Origin: an uncultured Actinomycetes bacterium
GTDB lineage: Bacteria > Actinomycetota > Thermoleophilia > Gaiellales > Gaiellaceae
Assembly: GCA_963820845.1 (NCBI GenBank)
Contig: CAWGBO010000006.1
Coordinates: forward strand, 137,838 to 201,837
Length of the DNA stretch: 64,000 nt
Direction of reading: 5' to 3'
Shown: piece by piece, positions 2,456-24,856 of the stretch
Numbering within the stretch: the stretch's first letter is position 1
Layout: every line of letters begins with the position of its first letter
The notes under the pieces: model-generated
Database searches by the model: none
What the model was told of the DNA's origin: nothing
Seen by the model: the letters and a program-made list of their open reading frames with translations, nothing else
Program-made: the position numbers and the translations under genes

Positions 2456-2600
2456 CTGGCCGCAGAGGTTAGAAACGACGCCCGGGAGCGACAAGATGCC
2501 GATCACGACCGTGGCGGCGCACGACACGGGTGCAGGCTCTTCAAGCGCCATTTCGCGGCGCCGCCAAATGTGATTCACTCCGTGGGTCGAGAGGAGGGTC

Positions 2601-4415: not shown

Positions 4416-4439
4416 CACGGCGTTCGCGATACTCACGAC

Positions 4440-4871: not shown

Positions 4872-4906
4872 CGTCGCAGCCGTCAATCGAATCGAGGAGG
4901 ACGGCG

Positions 4907-5320
4907 ATGCTGAAGGCGCTCTCACACACGCAGATCTGGGTCGACGACCAGGACGAGGCCCTCGCGTTCTACACCGACAAGCTCGGGATGGAGGTACGGG
5001 AGGACGTGACGAACCCCGAGGCCGGCGACTTCCGCTGGCTCAGCGTCGGCGTGCCCGGCCAGGACGTGTCGATCGCGCTGCTCGCGGTGCCCGGGCCGCC
5101 CTACTTCGACGAGGAGACGCGCGCCATGATCCAGGCGGTGCTGGCGAAGGGCATGGCCGGCGGGCTCGTGTTCGCGACCGACGACTGCAGGGGCGACTAC
5201 GAGACGCTGAAGGGCCGCGGCGTCGAGTTCACGCAGGAGCCGAACGAGGCGTTCTACGGCGTCGACGCGGGCTTCCGCGATCCGTCGGGGAACCAGTTCC
5301 GGCTGGCGCAGCTGCGCTAG
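4907..5320 (+). CDS. VOC (glyoxalase/bleomycin-resistance/dioxygenase) family protein
   Basis: ATG 4907 has GAGGAGG 7 nt upstream. MLKALSHTQIWVDDQDEALAFYTDKLGMEV... and ...YGVDAGFRDPSGNQFRLAQ are typical of the VOC fold. Confidence 0.8.
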   Translation: MLKALSHTQIWVDDQDEALAFYTDKLGMEVREDVTNPEAGDFRWLSVGVPGQDVSIALLAVPGPPYFDEETRAMIQAVLAKGMAGGLVFATDDCRGDYETLKGRGVEFTQEPNEAFYGVDAGFRDPSGNQFRLAQLR

Positions 5321-5479
5321 CCGGAGGGTTGATGTGGAATTCGGCCGCCGTCGGAGGGCGCTCCAGACCAAGCCGGGCAGTGCGGGCGGTCGTGGCGCGT
5401 AGCAGCGCTACGCGACGCGGCCGAACGTGCTGATCCGACGCCGTGTCTGGGGCGTCATCCGGCCCGCCCGCATTTCACG

Positions 5480-6619
5480 TCAGGCCTCCAAGTTGAACCA
5501 GCGGGCGCGGCGGTTCGCGCCGAACTCGTGCTTCTCGGCGACGAGGGTGCTGGACGGCGCCTGGAAGGTCCCGGTCGGCTTCGGCCCCGAGAGGAAGTCG
5601 ACGTCGACCCGCCCCACCCTGCCTCCGCCGAACTCGATGTAGCAGGAGCCGAGCCCGTCGTAGCCCCCGGGGCGGTCCGTGCCGCGGATCGCCCCGAGCA
5701 CCGACGCGGCGACGACCCGCGCCGCGCCCTCGGCGAACACGCCCGCCTTCGGCACGCCGATCGTCGCGACGTCGCCGACGGCGTACACGCCGGGGAACCG
5801 CGTCTCGAGCGTCCGCGAGTCGACGGGCACGTAGCCGTCTTCGGTGATCCCGCTCGCGATCACGACGTCGGGCGCGCGGTGCTTCGGAACGCCGAGGAAG
5901 AGGTCGTACGGCAGCTCGGCGCCGTCGTCGAGCACCGCGACACTCCGCGCCGGGTCGAGCGAGGCGACGCGCCGGCCGGCCACGAACTCGATCCCGCGCT
6001 CCGAGAACGCCTCGACGAGCGCGGCCGACGTCTCGGGCGACGGCGGTACCGGGGTCGAGAACGGGATCACGATCGAGAGCTCGCACTCGCCGCGCACCCC
6101 TCGCGCCGTGAGGTAGTCGTCGAGCAGGAGCGCGCACTCGCTCGGCGCCGGCGGGCACTTGAACGGCGCTCCGCAGACGCCGACGATCGCCCGGCCGCCG
6201 GCGAAGCTGGGCAGCACCTCGGCGAGCCGCGCGGCGCCTGCCAGGGAGTAGAACTCGTTGCCGCCCTCGGCGAGCCCGGGCGTGGCGTCGAGGTCGTAGT
6301 CCGCGCCGAGCGCGATCACCAAGAAATCCGCCTCGTACTCGCCCGCATCGGTGGTCACGCGCCGCGCCTCGGGATCGATCGCCGTGACCGTCTCCCGCAG
6401 GAACCGCACTCCGGGCTTCGCGAGCGCGCGGTACGGAAGCCGGACGGCGTCGAGCGTCGCGCGGCCGAACATCACGTCGAGCTTGGAGTATCCGAACACG
6501 AACGCGTCGCTGCGGTCGATCAGCGTCACGTCGATCTCGTCGCCGAGCGCGCCGGAGAGGACGGTGGCGAGCTCGAGCCCCCCGAAGCCCGCTCCCAGCA
6601 CGAGGACACGCGTCGTCAT
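5480..6619 (-). CDS. FAD-dependent pyridine nucleotide-disulfide oxidoreductase (sulfide:quinone oxidoreductase / NDH-2-like)
   Basis: N-terminal Rossmann motif VLVLGAGFGGLE, an FKCPPAPSE motif and a second dinucleotide region (VYAVGDVA). Intact 379-aa ORF. Confidence 0.75.
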   Translation of the reverse strand: MTTRVLVLGAGFGGLELATVLSGALGDEIDVTLIDRSDAFVFGYSKLDVMFGRATLDAVRLPYRALAKPGVRFLRETVTAIDPEARRVTTDAGEYEADFLVIALGADYDLDATPGLAEGGNEFYSLAGAARLAEVLPSFAGGRAIVGVCGAPFKCPPAPSECALLLDDYLTARGVRGECELSIVIPFSTPVPPSPETSAALVEAFSERGIEFVAGRRVASLDPARSVAVLDDGAELPYDLFLGVPKHRAPDVVIASGITEDGYVPVDSRTLETRFPGVYAVGDVATIGVPKAGVFAEGAARVVAASVLGAIRGTDRPGGYDGLGSCYIEFGGGRVGRVDVDFLSGPKPTGTFQAPSSTLVAEKHEFGANRRARWFNLEA

Positions 6620-6704
6620 CGGGCGATCATAAGGCTGCGTCCGACAGGCGTCCTAGCCTTCCCGGGGAACGGTTTGGTTCAACCATTAGGGAGGTCTGGA
6701 CCGG

Positions 6705-7394
6705 ATGGACAACATCCGCAAGTACATGGCCGAGCTGCTGGGGACGTTCGTCCTCGTGTTCGGCGGCACGACCGCGATCACTGCCGCGAATGCGGCGCAG
6801 CAGGGCATGTCGTTCAACCTGATGGTCGCGTTCGCGTTCGGTCTGTCGCTCCTCGCCGGCCTCTACTGGATGGCCGAGATCTCGGGCGGCCACTTCAACC
6901 CGGCGGTCTCGCTCGCGATGGTGCTCGACAAGCGCCTGAAGCCTGCCGACATGGTCGGCTACTGGATCTTCCAGGTGATCGGCGCCGTGCTGGCGAGCCT
7001 CGCGCTATGGGTGTTCACGAGCAGGGCGATCGTGAAGACCACCGGCACCTATCCGGGGCTCCCCGACGGCAAGACGTGGTTCGTCGAGTTCCTCTTCACC
7101 GCGATCTTCGTCGGGGTGATCCTGCAGGCGTCGAGCAGCAAGGGTTATGCGAAGAGCGCCCTCGTCTCGATCCCGCTCACGCTCGTCGCCGTCCATCTCG
7201 CGATCATCCCGTACAGCGGCTCGTCGGTGAACCCGGCGCGGACGCTCGGGCCGGACATCGTCGGCGGCAAGTGGACGGGGATCTGGATCTACCTCACGGC
7301 GCCGCTCGCGGGCGCGATCCTCGCCTTCCTGATCCACTCGCTCGTGATCAAGGGCGAGGCGCCCGGCTTCGAGGAGAGCTCCACCGGAGCCTAG
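6705..7394 (+). CDS. MIP-family channel (aquaporin/glycerol facilitator)
   Basis: Two NPA boxes (SGGHFNPAVSLA and GSSVNPARTLG) in a six-TM hydrophobic pattern. Confidence 0.9.
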   Translation: MDNIRKYMAELLGTFVLVFGGTTAITAANAAQQGMSFNLMVAFAFGLSLLAGLYWMAEISGGHFNPAVSLAMVLDKRLKPADMVGYWIFQVIGAVLASLALWVFTSRAIVKTTGTYPGLPDGKTWFVEFLFTAIFVGVILQASSSKGYAKSALVSIPLTLVAVHLAIIPYSGSSVNPARTLGPDIVGGKWTGIWIYLTAPLAGAILAFLIHSLVIKGEAPGFEESSTGA

Positions 7395-7417
7395 TCTCGC
7401 CGAGGTAGATGCGATGC

Positions 7418-7449
7418 GATGCGGGGCCGGGCCATACCGGCCCCGCATC
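7418..7449. terminator. GC-rich hairpin between convergent genes (putative bidirectional terminator)
   Basis: GATGCGGGGCCGG-gccata-CCGGCCCCGCATC is a 13-bp perfect stem. It sits between the aquaporin stop (7394) and the minus-strand stop (7454). There is no U-tract. Confidence 0.5.
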
Positions 7450-7453
7450 CGGC

Positions 7454-9194
7454 TCAGGCCGGCGGGCAGTCCCCCTGGGTCGACGTGACGGTCTCCTGGC
7501 CCGCAGCGCTCGCGGTGTCCCCGGGGGCCGCAGTCACGTCGGCGCCCGCCGTGTACTCGCCGTACTGGTTGATCGGTATGCGGACGAACAGCGACCCGTC
7601 GGCACCGAGCGTGAGGTTCTGGTCGCCGCCGGACACGACGCCCGGGCCGCCGACGCGAAGGTGAACCTGCGCCCCTGCGCGCGGCGGGACGGTGGTGACC
7701 TTCACGCAGACCTCCGACGACCCGGGGGCGATGTGGTGGTAGGTCATCGCCACGGTGACGTGGAAGCCGGTGCCGCCGGGCGGCGCGTGCGGGCGCGACG
7801 CGGCGAAGTTCGTCAACCCGGGAACCGTCTGGCCGAGGATCTGGCTCGCGTCGATCGCGGAGGAGCCGTTGAACGCGGAGACGAGGCCGTTCGCCAGGTC
7901 GGTGGCGCCCGGCATCGCAGCCCAGGTCGCGAGACCGGAGGTGATCGCGTTCGTGAAGCCGCCCGCCTGGTAGGGGTTCGTGACGTTCAGATTCACCGTC
8001 CCGCCGGTATTCGTCAGCACCGCGTTCGTCTGGGACACGAGCAGCCGGTTCCCGTTCGCGATGTAGCCGAACGACATCTGGTCGCTCCGGCTCGCGGCGA
8101 GGATCACCCGGAGGTTGCTCTGGTCCGACAGCTCGGCCCAGCGTCCGGAGAAGCACGAGTCGACCACGAGCTTGAACGTGAGGTTCATGTGCGCCTTCAT
8201 CACCTCGCGCACCCCGTCCGCGTCGAGCGTCGTGTGCTTGGTCACCGTCGTGATCATGAACATGGAGTTGAACTTGGTCTCGGTACTCGTCAGCGCGACC
8301 TGAGCGTGCGCGCTCTCGGGGATGTTCTGGCCGGGCGCGTTCGGATGCGGGAAGTTCGAGCCGACCGCCGGATAGCCGTGGGCGTCGAGGTAGATCACGA
8401 CGTCGGTGCACGCCGGAGTCGCACTACGACAGCTTCTTCACCTTCGCCTCGAGGTCGTTCCCACTCGTGGCGTTCTCGAGCGGGATGCCGAGCTTCTTCG
8501 CCGTGGCGTCGAGCGCGTTCAGGTCACCGGTGAAGATCGGGTCGACCGAGTCGCTCATCACGATGATGCAGTCGTTCGGGTAGCTCGAGATCGCGAGCCC
8601 GCGCCACGCTTCCAGCACGGCGCTGCGGACCTGCGCAGCCGCCACGCCCCGGGTCGCGGCCGACGCGCTCCCGGGCTTGACGCCGTGGGAGAACACGCGG
8701 TACCGGTTCGAGTCGTAGCCGGACGGCGCGATGAAGGCGGGCGCCTTCCCGTTGACGAGCGGCCACCAGGCAAGGGACTGCTTCCGCACGGCCTTGCCGC
8801 GCGCGTCGACGAGGACCAGCACGCTGGAATGCTCGAAATGCGCGTAGGGCGCCAGATCCATCCAGAACAGCCAGGTTCCGGCCGGGAGGCGCCTCTCGGT
8901 GTCGGTGAACGTCTGGATCGTCCCGATCCCGGCGGCGGTGACAGTCGTCTTCCCCCGACCGGACGGCCCGGGCCCGGCCTCGCTGACCGCGGAGCCCTTC
9001 GGCAGCGGGCGCGGCAACCCGAACACGATCACAGGTCCCGCGACCTTGCCGGCGCCGAGCGCCGCCAGTGCCGCCTTCTGCGCGGCGGGCCGCGACACGG
9101 CGGCGGCCGGCCGGGCGAACGCGAGCCCTGCTGCCACGAACACCGCGATGACGACGCACGCTGCCCTCAACCGCACAGGAGCACCATAGGTCAT
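7454..9194 (-). pseudogene. secreted clan-CD (caspase/legumain-like) cysteine peptidase-like protein, split by one frameshift near 8400-8425
   Basis: ORF 8424-9194 has a signal peptide and ends ...NDCIIVMSDS...AKKLGIPLENATSGNDLEAKVKKLS. ORF 7454-8398 continues (CTD)VVIYLDAHG...FKLVVDSCFSGRW. This gives hydrophobic strand+HG and hydrophobic strand+DSCxSG, as in caspase-fold His/Cys dyads. The two halves are separated by only about 25 nt in different frames. Confidence 0.5.
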
Positions 9195-9209
9195 GTCGCT
9201 TCCTCGCCG

Positions 9210-10589
9210 CTAGGGCGCGACGCCCGTGGTGGCTGCCGCGATCTCCTCGTCGATCTGCCCCTCGCCCGGTCCCTTCCGCCGTTCGTGCAGCACCTCGATC
9301 GTGATGTACGAGATCACGACCGCGACGATCACGAGCGGGGCGACGGCGATCCCGGCGCTCGACGTCAGGAGGAGGGCGAGCACGACGGACGAGAGCGGGA
9401 GCCGGAGCACCGAGACGGCGCCGATCGCGATCAGCACCGCCACCGCCTGCGTCTCGGCGAACCCTGGCAGGTGCGCCGCGAGCAGCCCCGCCGCCGAGCC
9501 GAGGAACAGCGCGGGGAACGTCGGGCCGCCGCGGAAGCTGCCGAGCGAGATGCTCCACGCGATTCCCTTGAACAGCAGCAGGAGCCAGAGGGTGGACAGC
9601 GCCAGGGTCGGCGCGTCCTTGAACAGCGACCCAAACGCGTCCTGACCGGAGAAGAGGACGGCGTCGACCGGCTGCCCGGTCGTGTGATGGAAGAGGATCG
9701 CTAGGCACGCGACGGCGAGCCCGGCCACGGTCGTGAGCAGGAACGGCCGTGACTTGACGACACGTTGCACCAGCCCTGCGACCTCGACGATCGCGAACAC
9801 CACGAACGGGACTGCGAGCGCGAGCGCGATCGTCCACCCGAAGTCGGCGAAGTCGGGGCCGGGGTACGGCGGCAGCGACAGCGGGGTCAGCGCATAGGCG
9901 CTCGTCGAGAGGCCCGACCAGCTGCCGAGCCCGATGAAGACGAGCGCGCCGATCCCGGAGGCGAGCAGGCCGGGAAGGAGGATCACGGGCAGCATCGCGC
10001 CGCCGATCCCGGCGGCCTCGATCACGATCACGGCGCCGATCACCGGCGAGCCGAAGATCGACGAGATCGCCGCGAAGCTGCCGGCGGCCGCGAGGATCGC
10101 CAGCACCGGCTGCGGCGCGTCCTTGTTGACGAGGCGAATCGCGAAGATCGCGAGCCCCGCGCCGAGCGCGATCAGGGGTGCCTCCGGGCCGAGCACGAGC
10201 CCGAGCCCGAGCGTCGCAATCGCCGCGAGCAGGATCCCGGGGAGCTCGATCGGCTGGGCGGGGCCGCCGCCTGTCTTGAGCCCGTCAGCGGGCTCGTGGC
10301 CGCCGTGGCCCGGCAGCCGCACGATCGCGAACGCGGTCACCAGGCCGGCCAGGGCGAGCACCGGCAGCGACCACCACGACGGAGTGCTGTCGAAGCCGAG
10401 CTCACCCGGGAGCGCGACGAACACCCAGTGCTGCAGCTCGTGCACTCCCTCGAGGAACGCCCACGACGCAATCGAGACGAGCAGCCCGACCGCCGCCGCG
10501 AGGACCAGCAGGGCGCGATAGCGCCTGCTCCGGATCAGCGAGCCGGGATCGACCGGAGGCGCGGCTGGATCGTTCATAGCGACGACCAT
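9210..10589 (-). CDS. ClC-family voltage-gated chloride channel protein
   Basis: 459-aa polytopic protein with ClC-like motifs GPEAPLIALGAG, GSPVIGAV and GGPTFPALFLG. Confidence 0.75.
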   Translation of the reverse strand: MVVAMNDPAAPPVDPGSLIRSRRYRALLVLAAAVGLLVSIASWAFLEGVHELQHWVFVALPGELGFDSTPSWWSLPVLALAGLVTAFAIVRLPGHGGHEPADGLKTGGGPAQPIELPGILLAAIATLGLGLVLGPEAPLIALGAGLAIFAIRLVNKDAPQPVLAILAAAGSFAAISSIFGSPVIGAVIVIEAAGIGGAMLPVILLPGLLASGIGALVFIGLGSWSGLSTSAYALTPLSLPPYPGPDFADFGWTIALALAVPFVVFAIVEVAGLVQRVVKSRPFLLTTVAGLAVACLAILFHHTTGQPVDAVLFSGQDAFGSLFKDAPTLALSTLWLLLLFKGIAWSISLGSFRGGPTFPALFLGSAAGLLAAHLPGFAETQAVAVLIAIGAVSVLRLPLSSVVLALLLTSSAGIAVAPLVIVAVVISYITIEVLHERRKGPGEGQIDEEIAAATTGVAP

Positions 10590-10625
10590 AACCTGCTCCC
10601 CCGGCGCCGCGGCGCTTTCAGGCCT

Positions 10626-11024
10626 CTAGCCGGCGGCGTACTCCTCGTCGGTGACGTGGGCGCCCCAAGTCGCGCTGTTCCCCTCCTCGTCGACCTGCAC
10701 CATCGCGAGGTGCGCCATGAACCGCGTCGCCGTCGCGCCGTGCCAGTGCTCCTCGCCCGGCTCGAAGAAGACGCGGTCGCCCGGGCGGATCACCTCGACC
10801 GGGCCTCCGCGCCGCTGCGCGTGGCCGACGCCTTCGAGGACGAAGATCGTCTGGCCGTTCGGATGCGTGTGCCAGGCGGTGCGTGCGCCGGGCGTGAAGT
10901 GGACCCAGTTAGCCATCAGCCGCGAGGCGCCCGACGGCGCCGCGACCGAGTCGATGTAGACCGCGCCGGTGAACCAGTCAGCCGGTCCCTGCGCGGTGTC
11001 ATTGCTGTTGTGCGTGATCTGCAT
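10626..11024 (-). CDS. cupin-domain protein
   Basis: Cupin motifs: HTHPNGQTIFVLEGVG ... PGDRVFFEPGEEHWHGA. Confidence 0.75.
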   Translation of the reverse strand: MQITHNSNDTAQGPADWFTGAVYIDSVAAPSGASRLMANWVHFTPGARTAWHTHPNGQTIFVLEGVGHAQRRGGPVEVIRPGDRVFFEPGEEHWHGATATRFMAHLAMVQVDEEGNSATWGAHVTDEEYAAG

Positions 11025-15572: not shown

Positions 15573-15633
15573 GGCGCGTTCCCCGGACGTCCGTCCGATC
15601 AACGAACAGACGCCCGGGGTCACGCGCGCCGGT

Positions 15634-16092
15634 CTAGCGGCACTTGGTCTTGAACGAGCTGACGATCGCCGTCAGACGGGGAGTCTTGAGCTGGATCTGT
15701 TGGTAGGCCGTTGTTGCAGCCGACTTGTCGTTCTTCAGCGTCGCGGCTTCGAGGCTGTGGTAGTTGCCGACGAGAGAGTCGAAGCCTGCGCCGGCATTCG
15801 CGACCGCCGACGCGCACGGGCCGGACTGACCGGCCGCCTTCCAGAGAGTCTGCAGCGCGCCGTCGAGAACGTGGGCCTGTGTGTAGAAGGCGGTGTAGCT
15901 CTTCGACAGGCAGGCCTTCGACGTGCACTTCGAGGTAGCCGTATCGATGTTGCCGGTCGCAAGGCCGAGCTTGGCCACCTCGATGCCGACGTTGGCGACA
16001 AGGTTGGGCGGAGGTGTCTTGGCCACAGCCGGCAGCACCGCCGCGAGGGCAGCGATACAGGCAACGGCGAGGAGGGAGATTCGTTTTGTCAT
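15634..16092 (-). CDS. secreted hypothetical protein
   Basis: Signal peptide MTKRISLLAVACIAALAAVLPAVAKT. The mature part is helical with 4 Cys. No family recognised. Confidence 0.55.
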   Translation of the reverse strand: MTKRISLLAVACIAALAAVLPAVAKTPPPNLVANVGIEVAKLGLATGNIDTATSKCTSKACLSKSYTAFYTQAHVLDGALQTLWKAAGQSGPCASAVANAGAGFDSLVGNYHSLEAATLKNDKSAATTAYQQIQLKTPRLTAIVSSFKTKCR

Positions 16093-16187
16093 GGGCTGGT
16101 TATCGGGCCGGCGGCCTTCGGTCTTTAGGTGCAGGGGAGCCGAAGCCGGCGGTGGCGCGCGAGGTTCCAGTTCTTCGCCAGGGCGTC

Positions 16188-16264
16188 GGGCCGTTTCAAC
16201 CGACAGCCACCTCGATGACGAAGAGCTGCGCGTGGAAGTTCACCAGGGCCGGGACTAGAAAGTG
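16188..16264 (+). repeat. 77-bp direct repeat, copy 2
   Basis: GGGCCGTTTCAACCGACAGCCACCTCGATGACGAAGAGCTGCGCGTGGAAGTTCACCAGGGCCG... It lies at the left edge of the more AT-rich segment. Confidence 0.7.
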
Positions 16265-16326
16265 CTCTACGTGATCCTCAGAAGAGCTCGTTCCTACTCG
16301 AGCTAGTTCCGCGTCATCTGTAGCGA

Positions 16327-17376
16327 TTAGCTAGACGAGAGACTGCGGATCGCGTTCGCCCGTTCGGGCTCGCGTTCGAGCCAGCCCTCGATCCGCTCGA
16401 CGATTGATTCGCGCTCATAGTCGTGCAGTTTGGCAAGCTCCCTTTCGCTGTCGGGGCCGAACAGCGGTCCGCGCGCGTAGCTGAACTCGCCGGCGAGCTC
16501 GACCATCGCTGTCACCGCCGGCCCGGCCTGGATTGCGAGGGCAACGCCAACGTCTAGATCCAGCCCTTGGTTTCGCGCCCAAAGCGCGACAGCGCTCCAA
16601 TGCGCGATGTCGAGTTCTGCGTCCAGCTCGGTTTCAGGGTGCAATAGCAGCACGTCCGGCTTGTTCGCGAAACGCGCAAGCAGTTCAGTGAACGCCGAGA
16701 CGAGAGGCAGTATCGATTGCGCGTCCTGAACCGCCTGGGCGAGCTGCTCGGGATGAGCGGCCTGGACTTCGTTCCTGACAGAAATGATGGAGAACTGACC
16801 CAGCACGTCATCCAAAGCGCGCAGAGTCTCGTCGTCGAAGAGGTTGGCCACGATAACGCGGAAGCCAGATGCGGCCATGAGATCCCTCACCCAGCCGTCG
16901 CGTCGTCCGCTCAGGCCATCCACCATGTTCACGAAGGACGTTTCGTCGAAACCGGCCTCGTCAAGGTGCCGCAGCATCGCGCGGCCCGACTTTGTCGTCG
17001 AGAGCGAAGCCCTCATGGCCTCCCGCGACCGCGACTTCGAGATGGCTTTCGTCAAGGCGATTTCCACGCTGTCCAGGTAGGAGACCAGCGCGCGCTTCAC
17101 CGCTTCCGGCTTGATCGGCCATCCGCGTCCGAACAGAATCAGGACTGCGTCGCGCAGGCTGCGCCGTTGCCGCAGCACCTCATCGAGCGCCGCGGCCAGG
17201 TCGACCATCTCGGCGCCGTATCCGCTCTCTGATCCGCCGCCTCCGGGCCAGGTGCGTTCGGGCCTGATGATCTTCGCCTCGCGCCACCTCGCGGCCTGAC
17301 GCGGCGAGACGTCCCGCCCTCTTCGTTGCAGCTCTATTGCGAGATCGATCTCCGCATTACTCGGACTGCGCGGCAT
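16327..17376 (-). CDS. hypothetical all-alpha protein (349 aa), orphan
   Basis: Intact ORF in a visibly less GC-rich segment. No motif recognised (no P-loop, no nuclease signature). The N-terminal 40 aa are basic and could be DNA-binding. Confidence 0.55.
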   Translation of the reverse strand: MPRSPSNAEIDLAIELQRRGRDVSPRQAARWREAKIIRPERTWPGGGGSESGYGAEMVDLAAALDEVLRQRRSLRDAVLILFGRGWPIKPEAVKRALVSYLDSVEIALTKAISKSRSREAMRASLSTTKSGRAMLRHLDEAGFDETSFVNMVDGLSGRRDGWVRDLMAASGFRVIVANLFDDETLRALDDVLGQFSIISVRNEVQAAHPEQLAQAVQDAQSILPLVSAFTELLARFANKPDVLLLHPETELDAELDIAHWSAVALWARNQGLDLDVGVALAIQAGPAVTAMVELAGEFSYARGPLFGPDSERELAKLHDYERESIVERIEGWLEREPERANAIRSLSSS

Positions 17377-17474
17377 CCAGGCAGTCTAGAACAACCCGCG
17401 AGATTCGTCGGATTGGCCAGGGTCGCCGCCGGCCGCTGAAGTTTCGCGAAACGCAAAGAAGGAGGTGCAAGAAG

Positions 17475-17591
17475 ATGCAGTCAAACAACGGTTGGCTTCG
17501 CTTGATCGCCGCGCTTGCGGCGCTCGCGACACTAGCCACCTTCGTTGACGACCTCGGCAACGGCCGCCTGGACTGGGGCTTGCCGGAGTAG
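17475..17591 (+). CDS. 38-aa hydrophobic peptide (candidate small membrane protein)
   Basis: ATG 17475 has AAGGAGG about 9 nt upstream. Product: MQSNNGWLRLIAALAALATLATFVDDLGNGRLDWGLPE. It is divergent from the 349-aa gene, and below the ORF-track cutoff once the start is corrected. Confidence 0.4.
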   Translation: MQSNNGWLRLIAALAALATLATFVDDLGNGRLDWGLPE

Positions 17592-17645: not shown

Positions 17646-17674
17646 TGGAGGCGGCGGCCGGAATCGAACAGGCG
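17646..17674. repeat. degenerate copy of the ssrA 3'-end att repeat (relic attachment site)
   Basis: TGGAGGCGGCGGccgGAATCGAACaGGCG versus TGGAGGCGGCGGGAATCGAACCCGCG at 18910-18935 and 24498-24523. The differences are a 3-nt insertion and 2 substitutions. Confidence 0.55.
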
Positions 17675-17734: not shown

Positions 17735-17756
17735 CCCCCCCCCCCCCCCCCCCCCC
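17735..17756. repeat. C22 homopolymer tract, preceded by a 7-bp-stem hairpin (17715-17734)
   Basis: CAGACCC-ggaagc-GGGTCTG is immediately followed by 22 consecutive C, then GGGTCC. It lies 71 nt upstream of ATG 17827. Confidence 0.9.
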
Positions 17757-17826: not shown

Positions 17827-18144
17827 ATGCCTGATCAATTCTTGTTTGACTCGAGCGGACAGTGGCTGGCTTTTCGAGTCGGGCGATACATCTTCGATAC
17901 ACAAGGCTCATGGATCGGCTGGCTGCCTTGGAACGACGAGACGGTGGTAGACACGAATGGACAGTATCTCGGCACGATCTTTCCTGGTAATCGGCTCTAC
18001 CGCGTTTGGAACCAGCCCTATCTGGGCTACCCCGGCTACCCCGGCTACCCCGGCTACCCCGGCTACCCCGGCTACCCCGGTTTTGCCGGGTACTCTCCTC
18101 TCCCACTCGGCGCGGAAGACGTAACGCTGTCGGAGGGTTCATGA
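17827..18144 (+). CDS. small beta-repeat protein with C-terminal (GYP)6 tract
   Basis: Three internal repeats: FDSSGQWLAF / FDTQGSWIGW / VDTNGQYLGT. They are reminiscent of '4-fold beta-flower'-type proteins. Then LGYPGYPGYPGYPGYPGYPGFAGY follows. The stop overlaps the next start (ATGA). Confidence 0.6.
   Translation: MPDQFLFDSSGQWLAFRVGRYIFDTQGSWIGWLPWNDETVVDTNGQYLGTIFPGNRLYRVWNQPYLGYPGYPGYPGYPGYPGYPGFAGYSPLPLGAEDVTLSEGS
18025..18078 (+). repeat. perfect 9-bp tandem repeat (GGCTACCCC)x6, in-frame inside the CDS
   Basis: Six identical head-to-tail copies encode GYP repeats. Confidence 0.95.
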
Positions 18145-18801
18145 GCTCGAAATTCGAGCACTTTCCAGCCGAACCGTCCCAGCCAGAAACGCGCCGCGCG
18201 TTCTTGATCATCAGCGGCGCGCACGCTTCGGCTTCGTCGTTTCTTGACGCGTACGACGCTCAGGACCAACCCGAAATCGACTCCGACGTTCGCGAGGACC
18301 TCTTGCGCGCGATGCTGATCTTTTCGGCCGCGGGCGTCGATTCAATGGCCAAGCAGTTGATCCAGGATGCTCTGCCGCAAGTTAATCCAGCTACAGATCG
18401 GCGCCCGCGAGAACCTACGAGCGTTCGTGGAGAGACGTCTATCTCGAGATGAGCGCTCATCTAATCGGCTGCTCGCTACCGCTCTGATCTCGCATGATCC
18501 GCGCGGCGAATTCATTCTTGAGCTAGTCCGCGAGCTGATCGATGGAAGCCTCCAGTCGGTCGAAGAGCTCTCACGACTTGCGTCGTACTTTGATATTCCA
18601 ACGGACGAGCTAATCGCTGATCACCGGTTCCTGACCGAGATCTTCGCGGCGCGGAACCAAATCGCACACGAGCTCGACGTTGATTTCAGCTTGGAGGATG
18701 GTCATCGTCGACGTCGAGATCGCGACACGATGTTCAGGTACGCAACTGAGCTGTTCCGAGTAGCCGACGCCCTCCTGACAGCGGTCGAACAAAGGGTTTA
18801 G
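18141..18801 (+). pseudogene. HEPN-domain protein (Rx4H motif; RiboL-PSP/Abi-like), one apparent frameshift near 18375-18395
   Basis: Frame A (ATG 18141) reads MSSKFEHFPAEP...AGVDSMAKQLIQDALPQ. Frame B continues LIQLQIGARENLRAFVERRL...FLTEIFAARNQIAHELD, where RNQIAH is the HEPN Rx4H motif. It is translationally coupled to the upstream gene. Confidence 0.6.
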
Positions 18802-18878
18802 CTGAACAACCTGCGCTCGTTCGCCGCGACCGACATGCGCGGGCGCGGCTCACTGCGGCTCGGCCCCCACGCGTCCCG

Positions 18879-18904
18879 CCGGAAAGTCCCTTCGGACTTT
18901 CCGG
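18879..18904. terminator. strong hairpin at the islet boundary (putative terminator)
   Basis: CCGGAAAGTCC-cttc-GGACTTTCCGG is an 11-bp perfect stem. It lies 78 nt after the HEPN stop and 4 nt before the att repeat. There is no U-tract. Confidence 0.45.
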
Positions 18905-18908
18905 CGTA

Positions 18909-18935
18909 GTGGAGGCGGCGGGAATCGAACCCGCG
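18909..18935. repeat. distal att repeat: 27-bp perfect copy of the ssrA 3' end
   Basis: GTGGAGGCGGCGGGAATCGAACCCGCG is identical to 24497-24523. Confidence 0.9.
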
Positions 18936-18983
18936 CAAGATTTCAACCGACTCAGCACCAGCGAGCGGGAATGCGGGGTTGGT

Positions 18984-21623
18984 CTATCCGAGCGGTTGGC
19001 GGGCGATGGCGCGTGGTTCGCGTCCGGCGAGTAGCCAACCGCTGACAGTGGCGACGAGGGGGAGTCCGACCACGATGGCGAGTAGTTCGGCGACGGGCGC
19101 CGGGCCGAGCGTGCTGCCGAGGCTGTTGTGCGCCCACGCGATGAGTCCGAGGTAGGCCGCTGTGGTGCCGAGTAGCGCACCGAGGAGTCCGAGGGTGCCG
19201 GCGGTGGCGGCGGCGAGCGTCCGGCGGGTGGTGCCGCTGGCGCCGGCGGCTGCGAGGACGCGCAGGTCGCTTGCGGATTCGCTGCGGATCAGGTCGACGG
19301 TCAGCGCCAGGACGACGAGGGCGAGGATGATGCTCGCCGCGGTCGCCTCGACTCGGATCGTCGCAAAGCTCGGTTTCCCGTTCGAGGTCTCGATGCGCGT
19401 TTCGGCGGCTAGTGCGAGCTGGCGGGCGGCGTTCTTCTGGGCTGGGATGAGCGGGCGGGCCGTCTGAATGAGCCAGCCGTTCGGAACGAGGTGCAAGTGG
19501 AGTGCGTGGACGGCGTGCTCAGTAATGAGGGTGTTTGGGGCCGACGTGCCAGACGGCAGGCTGCCGAAGGTCTGGATCTTTGGCCCCGGGATGCAGCGTG
19601 CCGCCGTGCAGTGGTAGCTCTCGGCGATGAGGTGGCCATCCGGGGTGGCGCGCTGGGAGATCTCGCCCGGGCCGAGTAGATCGAGGTCGGACACCGCTCC
19701 GAGGCCGCGGCGCGAGGTGACGATGTCGGTGTCGGGGTCGACCTGGGCAGGCTTGATTCCGTAGCCGCGCAGAAGCGTCGGTGTGGCGACGTAGAGGGCA
19801 CCCTGATAGTTGTCACCGTCTTTGCGTGCTGCCTCGGCGCGCGTGAGCGTGCCTGTGCTGGTCGCTTGCCATAGCGTGGCGCGTTGGTTGGTGGCGAGTC
19901 CGGCGAGGATGGTCGGCGGAACTGGTCCGAAGCAGCTCGGTGTGCTGGAGAGGCACGGCGTGGGCCGGAGCCGGCCGGCCGAGTCGAGCGCAACGACAAA
20001 CCGGGCACGGAACGACATGGCCAGGGAGGTCACTTGGGCCCGCAGGGCACGCCGCTCGGCGCCGGTCGGCTGGGGCCCGGCGCCGGTGTAGCCGCTTCCC
20101 GGGTCGTGGGGCTCGTAGACGATGAGCTGCTTCGAAGAGAGGTTGGGACCGTCGAACGTGAGCGGACTGGAAGATCTGACGCTGGCCAGGACGCTGGTCG
20201 CCACGGCCAGGAGGACGACGAAGGTGATCGCGGCGAGCGCGGGCCCCGACCGAGCTCGGTAACGACTGAGGTCACGTAGTGCGACCCGCACGGCGACGGG
20301 CGCGCGTCTGCACAGGACGGCCGGGGCACCGACGACAACGGGGGCGAGCAAGAGCGCCCCGAGCACTGTGGCGAAGATGCCGCCTACTGTGGTCCACCCG
20401 CCGGCGAACCGGAGACAGGCGAGCCCGGACACGAGAAGGACGATTCCGGGTACCGCGGAGCGGCGCGATGCTCGCTGAGAGGCGGGGCGCCCGGAGAGGG
20501 CCGCCACGACCGGGACGCGCGCGGCCGCGCGAGCGGGTCGCCAGGAGGCCGCCGTGGCGGTGACAACGGCCAAGGCCATCGCGACGGCGATCGCCCACCA
20601 GGGCAGGTTGGACCAGGCGACGCGGTGTTCGACCGTGCTCTGCAGGCGTGGCGCGTAGCCGATCCACGCGAGGAAGCCGACGGTGGCACCGATGAGCGTC
20701 CCGACGACGCCCACCACAAAGCCGTCGGTGACCATCACGAGTCGGACATGCCGATCGGTGGCGCCGAGTGCGCCGAGCATCCCGAGCGCACGCAGGCGTC
20801 GCTTTGCCGTCGCCGCGAATCCGGTGACCGCCATCAGGCCGATGAGGATCAACCCGAGCACGGCGACTACGAGCACGATCGTCGCAGGGGTGATCCGGTG
20901 CACGATCACCTTGCCCCCGTCGCCTGCCGGGCCACGCCTCTTCGGTGTCGGCCCACCGGCGAAATGGAGCCCCGCGATACGCCCTGCGGTCGCATCGAAC
21001 AGGAGGGTGACCTGGGTGGGGCGGTTGACCTGTCCCGGCGCGACGAGCGCGAACTGGTCGAGCAGGTTCGCGGGATCCTCGACCAGTCCGATGACCCGCC
21101 GCGTGTGTCCACCCAAGCGCCAGAGATCCCCGACCCGGAGATCGAGCTGAGACGCCACGCCGCTCGTCACGGCAACCTCGTCGGGGCCGGCGGGGTAGCG
21201 CCCGGACACCAGCGACAGCTTCGGCCGCCCGTAGCGGCCGAAGGGGTCCTGAGCGCGCAGCTCGGTGCTGCTGACCGAGCCGGCCACGGCGATCGCCTGG
21301 TCTTCGATGACGTCGACTGGACCGAAGCGCCGCTGTGCGGCCGCCATGTCTTGCGCCAGGTGACGATCGCTGCCGGGCAGGGTGAGCAACGCATCAGCGG
21401 TACCGAACGCCGCCACGGTCGCCGTCGACGGCGCGTTGTAGGCGATCGCGGTTGCCATAACGGTCGCCGCGACCGCAATGGCCACCAGCGCGACCACGAG
21501 AATCTGCTGGCGCCACTCGCGGCGGAAAAGCCGCCACGCCCAGCGGACTACGGCGCGGCGGGCCGCGACGCCGCCGGTCACGGCGCGCGCCCGGACCGGA
21601 CGCCCGCGCAGCGCGGTGCTCAC
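18984..21623 (-). CDS. ABC transporter permease, FtsX/MacB-like with two FtsX domains
   Basis: 879-aa intact ORF with two 4-TM blocks separated by large extracytoplasmic regions. It overlaps the ATPase gene by 4 nt. Confidence 0.8.
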   Translation of the reverse strand: MSTALRGRPVRARAVTGGVAARRAVVRWAWRLFRREWRQQILVVALVAIAVAATVMATAIAYNAPSTATVAAFGTADALLTLPGSDRHLAQDMAAAQRRFGPVDVIEDQAIAVAGSVSSTELRAQDPFGRYGRPKLSLVSGRYPAGPDEVAVTSGVASQLDLRVGDLWRLGGHTRRVIGLVEDPANLLDQFALVAPGQVNRPTQVTLLFDATAGRIAGLHFAGGPTPKRRGPAGDGGKVIVHRITPATIVLVVAVLGLILIGLMAVTGFAATAKRRLRALGMLGALGATDRHVRLVMVTDGFVVGVVGTLIGATVGFLAWIGYAPRLQSTVEHRVAWSNLPWWAIAVAMALAVVTATAASWRPARAAARVPVVAALSGRPASQRASRRSAVPGIVLLVSGLACLRFAGGWTTVGGIFATVLGALLLAPVVVGAPAVLCRRAPVAVRVALRDLSRYRARSGPALAAITFVVLLAVATSVLASVRSSSPLTFDGPNLSSKQLIVYEPHDPGSGYTGAGPQPTGAERRALRAQVTSLAMSFRARFVVALDSAGRLRPTPCLSSTPSCFGPVPPTILAGLATNQRATLWQATSTGTLTRAEAARKDGDNYQGALYVATPTLLRGYGIKPAQVDPDTDIVTSRRGLGAVSDLDLLGPGEISQRATPDGHLIAESYHCTAARCIPGPKIQTFGSLPSGTSAPNTLITEHAVHALHLHLVPNGWLIQTARPLIPAQKNAARQLALAAETRIETSNGKPSFATIRVEATAASIILALVVLALTVDLIRSESASDLRVLAAAGASGTTRRTLAAATAGTLGLLGALLGTTAAYLGLIAWAHNSLGSTLGPAPVAELLAIVVGLPLVATVSGWLLAGREPRAIARQPLG

Positions 21624-22345
21624 CCGCTCTGCCCGGGACCCGCGAGCAGCGACTCGGGGCCTGGCGCCGGTGAGGTCTGGTCGACGAGGCGGCCGTCGCG
21701 CAGAAACACCACCCGGTCGGCCCAGGAGGCGAGCTGCGCGTCGTGAGTGACCACGACGGCAGCCACGCCGCGCTCGCAGGCCTCGTGGAGCAGGCGCATC
21801 ACGTCCTCCGCCTTCACCGAGTCGAGTGCGCCGGACGGCTCGTCGGCAAGGAGGAGCCGCCGGTCCCCCACCACCGCGCGGGCGATGGCTACTCGTTGAC
21901 GCTCGCCGCCGGACAGCTCGTCTGGGAACCGGGCTGCGCGGCCGTCCAACCCGAGCCCCTCTAGAGCTCGCAGTGCTGCCTGGCGGGCAGCCTTGCCAGC
22001 GACACCGTCGAGCTCGAGCGGCAAGGCGACGTTCTCGGCCGCGGTCAGCCCCGCAAGCAGGTTAAAGTCCTGGAACACGTAGCCGATTGCGCGGCGCCGC
22101 AGCCTGGCCTTGGCGTTGCGCGACATCCCTGACAGCGCGGCCCCATCAACCAGCACCTCCCCGCTGGTGGCTTCTTCCAAGCTTCCGGCGATCGTCAGCA
22201 GCGTTGTCTTGCCCGAGCCGCTCGGACCCATGACGGCGACCATCTCGCCGGCCTCGACGGAGAGGTCGACACCACTCAAAGCACGCACCTCCGCCGGCCC
22301 CTCGCCGTAGACCTTCGACACCCCGCGGAGCTCCAACATGCTCAT
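21620..22345 (-). CDS. ABC transporter ATP-binding protein (MacB/LolD-type)
   Basis: Walker A GPSGSGKTTLL, signature LSGGERQRVAIARA and Walker B LLLADEPSGALD. Confidence 0.9.
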   Translation of the reverse strand: MSMLELRGVSKVYGEGPAEVRALSGVDLSVEAGEMVAVMGPSGSGKTTLLTIAGSLEEATSGEVLVDGAALSGMSRNAKARLRRRAIGYVFQDFNLLAGLTAAENVALPLELDGVAGKAARQAALRALEGLGLDGRAARFPDELSGGERQRVAIARAVVGDRRLLLADEPSGALDSVKAEDVMRLLHEACERGVAAVVVTHDAQLASWADRVVFLRDGRLVDQTSPAPGPESLLAGPGQSG

Positions 22346-22923
22346 CGGCGGACCCCTACCCCGCGTCGCGGCCGCGGCGGCGGCGCGGAAACGGGGCCGG
22401 GAGCCTCGACGGCGGCGCGCCTGAGGCGGCCCTCGGCGGCGTCCAGCCAGCGGATGACCGCGTCCAGCCGAAACAGCTCTGCGTCGACAACCAAGGCCAG
22501 CCCCAAGTCAAGAGCGGCCTCATCCTCCTTGATCCGCGTCCACCCCTGCATCAGTTCGACGACGTACCGCCGGTGAGCCTGGATGACCGCGTGGACGTCG
22601 ATGCCTGGCACCCGCACCGCCACCAGCACCTTCATCACGAGCTCATCCCGCGGGGGCGTCGCCAGGTCCGGCTGGCTGCGCAGCCAGCCGGCGAGCACCT
22701 CCTCGCCGCCGGCCGTGATCCGAAACCACTTCTGCGGGCCATCCTCACCCGTGCCATCCGACTCGACCAGCCCGTCGCGTTCGAGCCGCTGCAGCGTCGT
22801 GTAGACCTGGCCGATGTTCAGCGGCCACACATCGCCCGTCCTCGCCTCGAACTCCTCGCGCAGCCGCAGCCCGTACTTAGGCCCCTCGCTCAGCAGCGCC
22901 AGCAAGGCATGGGGGACGCTCAT
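22342..22923 (-). CDS. PadR-family transcriptional regulator
   Basis: ALLALLSEGPKYGLRLREEFEARTGDVWPLNIGQVYTTLQRLERDGLV. It is first in the operon with the ABC genes. Confidence 0.85.
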   Translation of the reverse strand: MSVPHALLALLSEGPKYGLRLREEFEARTGDVWPLNIGQVYTTLQRLERDGLVESDGTGEDGPQKWFRITAGGEEVLAGWLRSQPDLATPPRDELVMKVLVAVRVPGIDVHAVIQAHRRYVVELMQGWTRIKEDEAALDLGLALVVDAELFRLDAVIRWLDAAEGRLRRAAVEAPGPVSAPPPRPRRGVGVRR

Positions 22924-22948
22924 GACTCGCGGCCGCCGCGTACCATGC

Positions 22949-22975
22949 GGAGTAGGATACTCAGTATTCTACTCC
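22949..22975. promoter_or_regulatory. 27-bp near-perfect palindrome upstream of padR (candidate operator)
   Basis: GGAGTAGgATACTcAGTATtCTACTCC lies 26 nt upstream of the padR start codon. Confidence 0.45.
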
Positions 22976-23408
22976 AGTCAAGCGGTCGCTCAGATGGAAT
23001 CCGCTTGAACCGAGGCGGCCAGTCAACGGGTGAGAAATCGCGCCTTCGGTCGCGGCCCCGATCGACCGGTGCGTCCAGGGACGAAGCGGCGGCACCCCGT
23101 AGGAGTGGCGCTCCGTCCCTGAGCCGGCCGGACACGGATCCCGCACTGGTATCTCCCGTGGGATTGCTTGGACCGGTAACACCTCGCCGCACCCAACGTG
23201 CAAGCGCTACACGCGCGACGGCGATATCCGTTGGTGGCTTCATGGGCCACGCGGTTGCGCGCGCGGAGCGTCGTCAAGGCACCAGCCGACCCCGGAGGGG
23301 TTGACGACGTGAGCACGGGCGGTATGACCGTGGGGCTGGAGGTCACCGATGGAGGTGCTGTTTCGCCTAGCGCACTGTCGGTCCACGGTCCTACGGTGTG
23401 ACTTGCCG

Positions 23409-24449
23409 ATGGAGCCGATCCGCGACAGTGCTTTCCGTCCCACGCAATTGACGCTCGCGGAGGCGGCCGTGACGATGCGAGCCGCGGTGAAGGACAAGTC
23501 GTACCGAGCAACGCCCGTTGGCCTTCTCGTCGGGCGGTTATCTTCGCTGGTTCCGGAACGAGTGGGGCGCGACACCCGCGACGATCCGCGACTACGAGGC
23601 GATCCTGGCGCGAATGTCGCTCACGCTGGCCGACCGTGACCCGCTGGAGGTGACGTTGGACGACCTGCGCGACGTGATCGACCTGTGGGCTGATCGCGAG
23701 GCGCGCACGCGGGCGAAGGTTACGTCCGTTGTGCGAGCGTTCTGGACGTGGGCTGAAGATGACGACCAAGTGCCGTTCTCTCCGGCGGCAAAGCTGCGTC
23801 GGCCCCGAGCTCCGATGAAGGCCGCACCACTTCCGCGAAATACTGACGCCCGACTGCTCAACGCATCGCCTATCGCCCGCGACCGCGTGGCGCTTCTCTT
23901 CCTGCTCGACCTCGGGCTCCGACGCGCGGAGCTGGCGGGCGTGCAGCCGCGTGACTTTGATCTCGGGCGACGGCAGGTGACTGTCTTTGGCAAGAGCCAG
24001 AAAAGTCGGGTCATCCCGCTCCGCGGCCGAATCGTGCTGGAGATCGAGCGGTATCTCCTGGAGACACTTCCGCACGTTGACCGAACGCCGGAGCCCGATG
24101 GCTTCTTGCTCTACCCCGAAAAGCGCGGCGCTGGTGGACGGATCCTCGCCGCCTATCCGAAGAAGCGGATGAGCGTGCCGACTACCCATCGGTGGTGGTA
24201 CCGGCGGCTCCAGGCGGCCGAGCTTGTCGGCGAGGGGATGACGAGCGGGATGAACATGCACCGCGCGCGACATACGTTCGCGACTGACCTTCGGCGCGTG
24301 GCCGATCTCGGCTCCGCGTCTCAAGCGCTCGTCACAGCCACCTCTCGACCACGGCGCGGATCCACGGCCACTACGACCTGAGCGACCTGGAGCGGGCTAT
24401 GGAGGCATTCGCACGTGCCCGGAGGGATGAAGTAGAGCCGGCCGACTGA
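23409..24449 (+). pseudogene. tyrosine recombinase/phage-type integrase, two apparent frameshifts (near 23530 and 24330)
   Basis: Three frames must be joined. They read MEPIRDSAFRPTQLTLAEAA..., then YLRWFRNEWGATPATIRDYE...LLFLLDLGLRRAELAGV...HRARHTFAT..., then GHSHLSTTARIHGHYDLSDLERAM...*. At 24330 CTCGTCAC reads as CTCGGTCAC with one G missing. Confidence 0.75.
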
Positions 24450-24495
24450 AATCGTTTCAATCGACCGGCTCTAGGAATGGCTCTACTGAGCCGAA

Positions 24496-24856
24496 GGTGG
24501 AGGCGGCGGGAATCGAACCCGCGTCCGCGGACGCACCGACAAAGCGTCTACAAGCGTAGTCCGCACTTGGATCTCGTCCGGCGGCCGGAGTGCGAACGCC
24601 CAACCGACGGACCAGCCATCCTGAAGTCTTGCGCCGCCGGCGATTGGCTCTCCTTTGGCGCGAAGCCCGTTAGTTGACGCCGCTACCCGAACCACGGGCC
24701 GAATCCGGAGCGACGCGCTAGGTAACTAGGTTACGCAGCGAGTGCGAGTTGGTTATCCGCACTTACTTGGTTTCCCGGTGGATTTACGAGGCCGACCGGG
24801 GACCTCGGCTTGCAGCTCTGCCGGAGAACCGACCACGTCGAAACCAGGTCGCCCCC
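24496..24856 (-). ncRNA. ssrA: tmRNA (transfer-messenger RNA)
   Basis: The minus-strand RNA starts GGGGGCGACCTGGTTTCGACG and ends GGACGCGGGTTCGATTCCCGCCGCCTCCACC. It has an Ala-type acceptor with G3:U70 and a T-arm. The tag ORF is GCG GAT AAC CAA CTC GCA CTC GCT GCG TAA (24760-24731). Confidence 0.9.

Follow-up and report, generated by a model that had tools for sequence, protein, structure and literature searches.

A beta-flower gene translationally coupled to a HEPN-family gene in a relic ssrA islet: a candidate two-gene defence or toxin-antitoxin cassette

The 4-fold beta-flower is a protein fold that was defined in 2023 from AlphaFold models only, placed in the Tubby clan and given no function; eight antiparallel strands form four hairpin 'petals' around a barrel, and the hairpin tips carry a semi-conserved [DNEQ]xxG motif (PMC10584680). 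The only functional statement on the beta-flower family PF21784 that we found in the literature concerns Cernunnos, an integron cassette that protects Vibrio cholerae N16961 against phage with a single gene (Darracq et al., bioRxiv 10.1101/2024.07.02.601686) and that has been recovered again in an independent cassette screen (10.64898/2026.03.17.712381). Here we describe a beta-flower gene (gene 1) that overlaps the gene for a HEPN protein (gene 2) in a stretch of 64,000 nucleotides (nt), referred to below as the window, from an uncultured Actinomycetes bacterium of the Gaiellaceae (GenBank assembly GCA_963820845.1, contig CAWGBO010000006.1, positions 137,838 to 201,837 of the forward strand).

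The second member of the pair belongs to a superfamily with an established place in phage defence. The HEPN catalytic site lies in an all-alpha bundle whose helices 2 and 3 are separated by an insert; its Rx4-6H motif closes helix 3, ahead of the loop that leads to helix 4, the arginine is followed by a polar residue (N, D or H), and helix 2 contributes a conserved acidic residue, usually within Ex3[KR] (PMC3710099). The RiboL-PSP-HEPN family has been described in fusion with endoRNase L-PSP and in an operon with ParB, and is distantly related to AbiF/AbiD (PMC3710099); its Pfam family, PF18735, is listed for the defence systems PD-T4-2, PD-T4-5, PD-T7-3 and ApeA (PMC10952713). In the RnlA-RnlB and LsoA-LsoB systems, a HEPN RNase is restrained by a small dedicated protein and freed on phage infection (PMC8266594).

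What is new at the present locus is a two-gene module in which a HEPN protein is combined with a beta-flower partner, a combination for which we found no earlier report. Our preferred reading, which we hold with moderate confidence, is that the locus is a copy of a horizontally moving two-gene cassette that was delivered to the ssrA hotspot, and that its two proteins act in defence by an abortive-infection or toxin-antitoxin-like mechanism. A sequence-only reading of the window had proposed an undescribed pair here; a literature search that did not cover every journal returned no published description of a beta-flower/HEPN pair, so that this part of the proposal stands, with the amendment that gene 1 falls in a named family which has a published anti-phage member in Cernunnos.

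Gene 1 had been read as an uncharacterised protein of 105 residues in which three hairpin-like repeats are followed by six copies of GYP. Its length, repeats and tail are as described, but the protein is not uncharacterised: residues 5-52 match the Pfam family PF21784 (Bflower) with 29.8 bits against a cut-off of 25 (E 8.2e-7), and the three repeats correspond to [DNEQ]xxG hairpin tips at D8SSG11, D24TQG27 and D42TNG45, G11 and G45 being invariant in 113 sequences of the family. The other Pfam matches, to Collagen and Bflower_2, are both weak; no DNA-binding or nucleotidyltransferase domain is among them, and the protein has neither a transmembrane segment nor a lipoprotein signal. An AlphaFold2 model built from 113 sequences (predicted local distance difference test, pLDDT, 89; predicted template-modelling score, pTM, 0.80) contains eight short strands arranged in four hairpins. 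The GYP block (residues 61-95) takes the place of the fourth hairpin tip and is modelled with neither helix nor strand at a pLDDT of 85-92; it may form a polyproline-II hairpin that packs against the barrel or within it. Foldseek found no match for the model in the PDB, in agreement with the definition of the fold from AlphaFold models (PMC10584680).

Homologues of gene 1 are numerous and closely related. A word-seeded search of 5.8 billion proteins returned 359 clusters, the best 120 of which share 54-72% identity over more than 90% of the length, and most close homologues already carry a precomputed PF21784 annotation. The (GYP)6 segment is part of a run of eight Gly-X-Y triplets, and the Gly-Tyr-Pro tract is kept at the protein level: the uninterrupted Gly-X-Y run is eight triplets long in 90 of 132 non-redundant homologues, and 'GYP' occurs six times in 80 of them. 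The perfect DNA-level repeat in the window is at the high end among homologues without being unique. No homologue was found in 50,697 phage records, and there were only four plasmid matches, which are weak and all lack a HEPN gene.

Gene 2 is open in the frame of its start codon at 18141 up to V81 (18381-18383); from I82 (18385-18387) onwards it is open in the +1 frame, as far as the stop at 18801. Rejoined, the two frames encode a protein that bears out the earlier estimate of about 220 residues with an Rx4H signature. The repaired protein matches PF18735 (HEPN_RiboL-PSP) over residues 36-186, a region that includes the frameshift junction (E 2.5e-5), and each half by itself gives a poor Pfam match. 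Homologues form 71 clusters; PF18735 is matched at E<=1e-3 by 46 of the 63 aligned members (best 9.2e-10), many relatives carry a precomputed PF18735 annotation, and some are called 'HEPN domain-containing protein' by NCBI. An exhaustive HMMER scan of 1.84 billion representatives brought the number of relatives to 982, with 476 below 1e-30 and nearly all between 220 and 250 residues in length. NCBIfam and PHROGs contain nothing for either gene 1 or gene 2.

The residues expected of a HEPN active site are among those that do not vary. R56, G65, D67, K71, S136, S139, F168, R171, N172, H176, E177, D179 and R192 are invariant in the 63 relatives, a set that includes the arginine and histidine whose conservation the sequence-only reading had singled out for checking. 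The AlphaFold2 model of the repaired protein is all-alpha (pLDDT 94.5, pTM 0.90): long helices 15-40 and 48-76 come first, the latter containing D67x3K71; helices 78-157 form an insert; and RNx3H closes the penultimate helix (161-177), which is followed by a loop (178-193) and the last helix (194-218). All three site features given in PMC3710099 are present when the alignment and the model are taken together. At the level of residues, the family keeps an intact constellation, RNx3H plus Dx3K, of the kind predicted for metal-independent RNases. Membership of the HEPN family is well supported by profile, motif and predicted topology; that much of the earlier identification holds, but comparison of folds does not confirm it.

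The two genes share the stop/start overlap ATGA that had been noted from the sequence. Among 117 homologous pairs the estimated stop-start spacing is -4 in 26, -1 in 22 and 0 in 20 (68 together), with a median of 0, and because the spacing clusters at these values the overlap is a trait of the family rather than of this copy. We surveyed gene 1 in one genome per GTDB species, using an alignment of 25 sequences as the query, and found a HEPN gene directly downstream on the same strand in 53 of 80 loci. A reciprocal survey of gene 2 covered 80 loci, out of 409 confirmed relatives, in the JGI metagenomes together with three from IMG/VR; a beta-flower gene is directly upstream in 64 of the 73 HEPN loci with room for one. 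The three IMG/VR contigs have the HEPN gene and one of them has the pair. The recurrent adjacency that the sequence-only reading had suggested looking for is therefore found; the accompanying expectation of defence-gene surroundings is not demonstrated, the neighbours of the pair being ordinary genes more often than defence genes.

The paired loci are spread over Cyanobacteria, Acidobacteriota, Alphaproteobacteria, Gemmatimonadota, Nitrospirota, Chloroflexota, Omnitrophota, Bdellovibrionota, Latescibacterota, Planctomycetota, Spirochaetota, Patescibacteria, Bacillota, Bacteroidota and Binatota, and overall the module occurs in at least 14 phyla, patchily and at 60-70% identity. In 92 non-redundant intact pairs the pairwise identities of the two proteins correlate (Mantel r 0.56, reached by 0 of 999 permutations), and the two genes move and diverge as a unit; mean pairwise identity is 63% for the beta-flower protein against 45% for the HEPN protein. 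A conserved third gene was sought in the flanks of the pair and not found. The two nearest genes on each side belong to 85 and 78 different Pfam families and vary by genome, including LysR regulators, transporters and tRNA synthetases as well as integrases (3), AAA_21 ATPases (5), UvrD helicases (2), Schlafen/AlbA_2 proteins (2), HsdR, DNA methylases and a transposase. Coupling, co-variation, heterogeneous flanks and the lack of a third gene together describe a small autonomous mobile cassette and not a core locus.

Four HEPN relatives with long N-terminal extensions (P0230, P0240, P0295 and P0298) were read, and none has a beta-flower N-terminus. P0230 and P0240 were rejected as fusions, their open reading frame (ORF) calls running into another frame of the upstream GYP repeat; the extensions of these two database entries (PATPATPAT or IQNIQVIQ) are spurious.

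If the pair does act as a defence module, translational coupling would cause both proteins to be made in fixed proportion. The beta-flower protein would bind the HEPN RNase and either keep it inactive or license it, and a phage-derived cue, or loss of the partner, would free the RNase to cut cellular and/or phage RNA and so stop growth. The data themselves show the families to which the two genes belong, conserved catalytic residues, a constant gene order with coupling and co-variation, a patchy distribution through horizontal transfer, mobile and defence genes that are often nearby, and the frameshift. The toxin or defence role of the pair is what we infer here, and with it the physical interaction, the choice of partner that senses the trigger, the RNase activity and toxicity, and the anti-phage role.

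Several observations weigh against this proposal. The beta-flower gene lacks a HEPN neighbour in 27 of the 80 GTDB loci, and a protein that is both the more conserved partner and often solo is unusual for a mere antitoxin and suggests an activity of its own. The HEPN copy in the window is frameshifted. The repaired protein scores 24.7 bits against PF18735, below the cut-off of 28.4, and its fold is not confirmed structurally, since Foldseek gave no significant match for the model in the PDB or BFVD: the top PDB match, HepT (7ae8_C), is non-significant (E 1.5, probability 0.51, TM 0.33/0.45), and a sequence-profile search of the PDB with the HEPN alignment gave chance-level matches only. No beta-flower/HEPN fusion was found among the best 150 of the 982 HEPN relatives. 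Next to the pair, ordinary genes are commoner than defence genes, so that enrichment in defence islands is not demonstrated, and the PADLOC-DB v2.0.0 models, at E values up to 1, contain no match for gene 1 or repaired gene 2. The pair thus has no counterpart in PADLOC; none of the checks that we ran refuted the earlier proposal of a candidate toxin or defence pair, and the cassette is a good candidate for a new anti-phage or toxin-antitoxin system.

The single interruption of the HEPN frame that the sequence-only reading had placed near 18375-18395 can be narrowed to one base. The four closest homologues (P0121-P0124, 64-71% identity) read DALPQVIQLQ without interruption across the site, so that the lesion is one extra A; an intact homologue of 225 residues aligns end to end with the repaired protein (44% identity, E 1e-55). 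A programmed frameshift was considered and is ruled out, as homologues cross the site in a single frame. Apart from this base the cassette shows no damage, and we regard it as a self-contained two-gene cassette that was either recently inactivated or mis-sequenced; as it stands, this copy is probably inactive.

That the extra base is a sequencing or assembly error, the module being intact and active in this organism, is a possibility that we take seriously while leaning against it. The lesion is single, both halves are otherwise open and all family-invariant residues are kept, and a nearby C22 homopolymer hints at an indel-prone technology or assembly. The HEPN gene is likewise split between frames in 7 of the 53 paired GTDB loci, and error is possible there too, because four of the seven (L007, L014, L026 and L035) lie in single-contig or chromosome-level metagenome-assembled genomes (MAGs), which from their accession style and contig sizes appear to be long-read assemblies. 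The extra base, however, lies in an AA dinucleotide and not in a long homopolymer; in documented cases among close relatives the HEPN gene has been lost and the beta-flower gene is intact, which makes real decay plausible; and the islet is a relic between att copies without an integrase of its own.

The principal alternative to the preferred reading concerns the roles of the two proteins. The beta-flower protein might be an autonomous defence protein related to Cernunnos, one that combines the roles of sensor and effector or else a Tubby-like module directed at lipids or membranes, with the HEPN protein an optional effector or regulator rather than a toxin neutralised by gene 1; we consider this unlikely. 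In its favour, Cernunnos itself is a PF21784 gene with an anti-phage phenotype as a single-gene cassette (10.1101/2024.07.02.601686), and homologues of gene 1 with 58-62% identity are solo in Vibrio cassette arrays, as in Vibrio metschnikovii, where a 62%-identical homologue stands alone in an apparent superintegron cassette array. Solo genes are also close to paired ones: L045 compared with L025, from the same order (Bryobacterales), and L010 compared with L012 give identities of 94% and 86%, values that point to a HEPN gene recently lost or replaced beside a beta-flower gene that was kept. The converse is rarer: the HEPN gene lacks a beta-flower gene directly upstream in 9 of the 73 loci, one of which keeps a beta-flower remnant. 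By eye, the unpaired HEPN gene of L120 (919-4666) follows a type I restriction HsdR-like ORF of 1029 codons with a stop/start overlap, and translations of L115 and L167 suggest methylase-like and nuclease-like upstream genes; the remaining unpaired HEPN genes are preceded by unrelated or housekeeping-looking ORFs. The asymmetry, with the HEPN gene rarely solo and the beta-flower gene often so, fits a toxin in need of a keeper and, equally, a beta-flower protein that is the primary defence protein. The greater conservation of the beta-flower partner and the position of its fold in the Tubby clan (PMC10584680) are on the side of autonomy. Against it, gene 1 is tied to Cernunnos by the Pfam domain only, no V. 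cholerae protein being among the 120 best matches to the Vibrio homologue P0047; tight coupling and co-variation suggest that the two proteins of the paired subfamily form an obligate complex; and gene 1 has neither a transmembrane segment nor a lipoprotein signal.

Solo beta-flower genes are often found on mobile elements. Integrative elements of the Flavobacteriaceae (L050, L052, L053 and L063; about 2300-10900) carry them at the end of a backbone in which two HTH_17 genes, a BT4734-like gene, a DUF3987/PriCT_2 primase gene and an XRE regulator gene precede the beta-flower gene, and behind which the cargo is shuffled: a deaminase fusion of 678 residues, Piwi-domain Argonautes of about 700 residues and a DrmE_C-like protein of 797 residues. 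Elsewhere the gene after a solo beta-flower gene encodes an AbiJ_NTD3-TIR protein, an HNH nuclease or a DNA methylase. We considered whether the beta-flower protein is a dedicated partner of swappable effectors (prokaryotic Argonaute, pAgo; deaminase; TIR), and disfavour this, keeping it as a low-probability idea, because cargo shuffled behind a constant backbone is better explained if a solo beta-flower gene heads a defence island. A Chloroflexi MAG (L039) has two beta-flower genes about 1.5 kb apart, at 4155-4466 and 6001-6276, the second of which is followed by a gene for an M50-family peptidase in the place of the HEPN gene.

A more far-reaching form of the preferred reading gives the GYP tail a part in the mechanism. 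The GYP-tailed beta-flower protein could be the conserved core of a new class of defence modules, in which its invariant aromatic surface and a polyproline-II or collagen-like block of about eight Gly-X-Y triplets serve as an oligomeric scaffold or sensor that directly gates the HEPN RNase, the protein elsewhere being solo or beside pAgo, deaminase, TIR or HNH genes. This is a speculative proposal, and we would not expect it to hold in full; were it correct, this would be the first beta-flower protein with a definable mechanism.

An addiction-type toxin-antitoxin pair, with a HEPN toxin and a beta-flower proteic antitoxin that stabilises islands and mobile elements without any specific anti-phage function, seems improbable to us in spite of the layout of the genes. 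A small upstream gene and a larger downstream RNase gene that overlap by 4 or 1 nt, a scattered and horizontally transferred distribution without a third gene, and presence on one IMG/VR contig and on integrative islands like the present one would all suit such a pair, and HEPN toxins with small partners are known, as in HepT/MntA and RnlA/RnlB. Antitoxins usually evolve faster than their cognate toxins, and here the putative antitoxin is far more conserved than the toxin and often solo. Gene 1 also lacks a DNA-binding domain for autoregulation, and a PF21784 protein has a defence phenotype by itself.

Finally, a housekeeping RNA-processing pair of the core genome, for which it can be said that some HEPN proteins (Las1, and the KEN domains of Ire1 and RNase L) process cellular RNA (PMC3710099), is effectively refuted by the patchy distribution, by flanks that differ from genome to genome, by the location in a low-GC islet between att copies, and by frequent pseudogenization and loss; the sequence-only reading had named core-genome status as a way in which the defence interpretation could fail, and the locus is not core.

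Turning to the surroundings of the pair in the window (Table 1), the less GC-rich segment between ssrA att relics that had been described is present, with a GC content of 61.2% against 70.2% for the window as a whole and an att copy at either end. Gene 1 has 59.1% GC and gene 2 57.6%, and third-codon-position GC, at 0.62-0.74 in the two genes, is lower than the 0.84 of the adjacent ABC transporter genes. At the right-hand att copy, positions 18869-18934 give a weak partial match to tmRNA. Dinucleotide-preserving shuffles gave zero matches to the 21-mer. Genes 1 and 2 are the sole genes between the two copies, so that the locus is aptly called a relic islet in a tandem array of ssrA islands. 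The integrase of the adjoining inner island lacks the C-terminal part of its catalytic domain.

Table 1. Features of the beta-flower/HEPN locus and of the neighbouring ssrA island; positions are those of the window
Feature	Position	Strand	Basis	Remark
Gene 1, 105 amino acids, PF21784 beta-flower protein	17827..18144	+		Gly-Tyr-Pro-rich insertion in fourth hairpin
Gene 2, RiboL-PSP-type HEPN protein, 219 amino acids once repaired	18141..18801	+		+1 frameshift
ATGA stop/start overlap of genes 1 and 2	18141..18144	+	Stop TGA 18142-18144, ATG 18141-18143	Translational coupling
Perfect 9-bp tandem repeat GGCTACCCC, 6.2 copies	18025..18080	+	Tandem Repeats Finder (TRF), 100% matches	Encodes (GYP)6
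D67-x3-K71	18339..18353	+		Counterpart of HEPN helix-2 Ex3[KR], D instead of E
Extra A (GTT-A-ATC)	18384..18385	+	Three-frame translation against P0121-P0124	Shifts HEPN frame
Rx4H catalytic motif R171-N-Q-I-A-H176	18652..18669	+		Followed by invariant E177 and D179
Outer att relic, degenerate copy of ssrA 3' end	17649..17674	-	21-mer with 3 mismatches, 15-mer with 2	Left boundary of islet
C22 homopolymer	17735..17756	+	TRF, period 1, 22 copies, 100% matches	About 70 nt 5' of gene 1
att copy, 27-nt exact match to ssrA 3' end	18909..18935	-	Identity run with 24497-24523	Right boundary of islet
Inner ssrA island	18936-24496			Integrase, PadR, ABC ATPase, permease; bounded by 27-nt exact att copy
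FtsX/MacB-type permease, 879 amino acids	18984-21623	-		Inner island
ABC ATPase	21620-22345	-		Inner island
PadR regulator	22342-22923	-		Inner island
Truncated tyrosine integrase	23518..24381	+	PF00589 profile positions 10-142 of 172; phrog_1 E 3e-29	Inner island; adjoins ssrA
tmRNA gene (ssrA)	24495..24856	-	ARAGORN; Rfam RF00023, 182 bits	Integration target defining tandem islands

Some further features were noted around the islet. The C22 tract, just inside the degenerate att relic, could be slippage-prone (phase-variable) or an assembly artefact. Just outside the islet, an ORF of 38 codons at 17475-17591 on the forward strand, MQSNNGWLRLIAALAALATLATFVDDLGNGRLDWGLPE, encodes a hydrophobic helix with no Pfam match; it is preceded 8 nt upstream by a strong Shine-Dalgarno sequence, AAGGAGGTG, and may encode a small membrane peptide. 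An ORF of 349 codons at 16327-17376 on the reverse strand has no match in Pfam, NCBIfam, PADLOC or PHROGs. With 64% GC, compared with 70% in the window, the stretch 15600-17400 that holds it may represent an earlier islet on the far side of the outer att relic.

In this genome the importance of the locus is small because it is a decaying relic; its interest is in the family that it represents. For a fold described from predicted structures and without a function (PMC10584680), there is now a large and very conserved subfamily that is almost obligatorily coupled, across many phyla, to a HEPN RNase predicted from sequence to be catalytically intact. The coupling provides a testable hypothesis for the beta-flower fold, namely control of an RNase effector in abortive-infection or toxin-antitoxin biology, and a compact module of about 1 kb joins the list of candidate defence systems. 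If the hypothesis is right, HEPN proteins would have a further kind of regulator besides nucleotidyltransferases and small antitoxins, and two 'hypothetical' genes that are widespread as a pair would have an explanation.

Among described systems, Cernunnos resembles the present locus in its PF21784 domain, common to gene 1, and in the presence of solo gene 1 homologues in Vibrio cassette arrays; it consists of one gene, while the beta-flower gene of the present locus is coupled in translation to a HEPN gene, and the connection is by shared Pfam domain, not by sequence comparison. The RiboL-PSP-HEPN family is akin to gene 2 in a profile match that for the repaired protein itself stays under the Pfam cut-off, in Rx4H with a polar residue after the arginine, in the acidic-x3-basic motif of helix 2 and in being all-alpha. 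The subfamily of gene 2 differs in that its members are stand-alone proteins of about 225 residues and are nearly always encoded behind a beta-flower gene, a partner that the described contexts of the family do not mention.

HepT-MntA (type VII) is likewise a two-gene system, in which the gene for a small partner precedes that for a HEPN RNase with Rx4H, and HepT is the top structural match, albeit non-significant, of the gene 2 model; in that system the partner is a nucleotidyltransferase that AMPylates the toxin, a domain that gene 1 does not have, and the HEPN family is DUF86/HepT and not PF18735. The likeness to RnlA-RnlB and LsoA-LsoB is one of concept, a HEPN RNase held by a small protein: no sequence relationship was detected, the gene order is toxin first, the architecture of RnlA is different and the fold of RnlB is unrelated to the beta-flower. 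The single-protein HEPN abortive-infection systems (AbiD/AbiF, AbiJ, AbiU2 and AbiV; PD-T4-2, PD-T4-5, PD-T7-3 and ApeA) share a HEPN protein with the module, in their case as an effector of phage defence, and, unlike it, have no beta-flower partner; none of their PADLOC models matches gene 2 at E values up to 1. In its general layout the pair matches type II-like toxin-antitoxin systems, with small, adjacent and co-oriented genes that overlap or abut and form a conserved, horizontally mobile unit.

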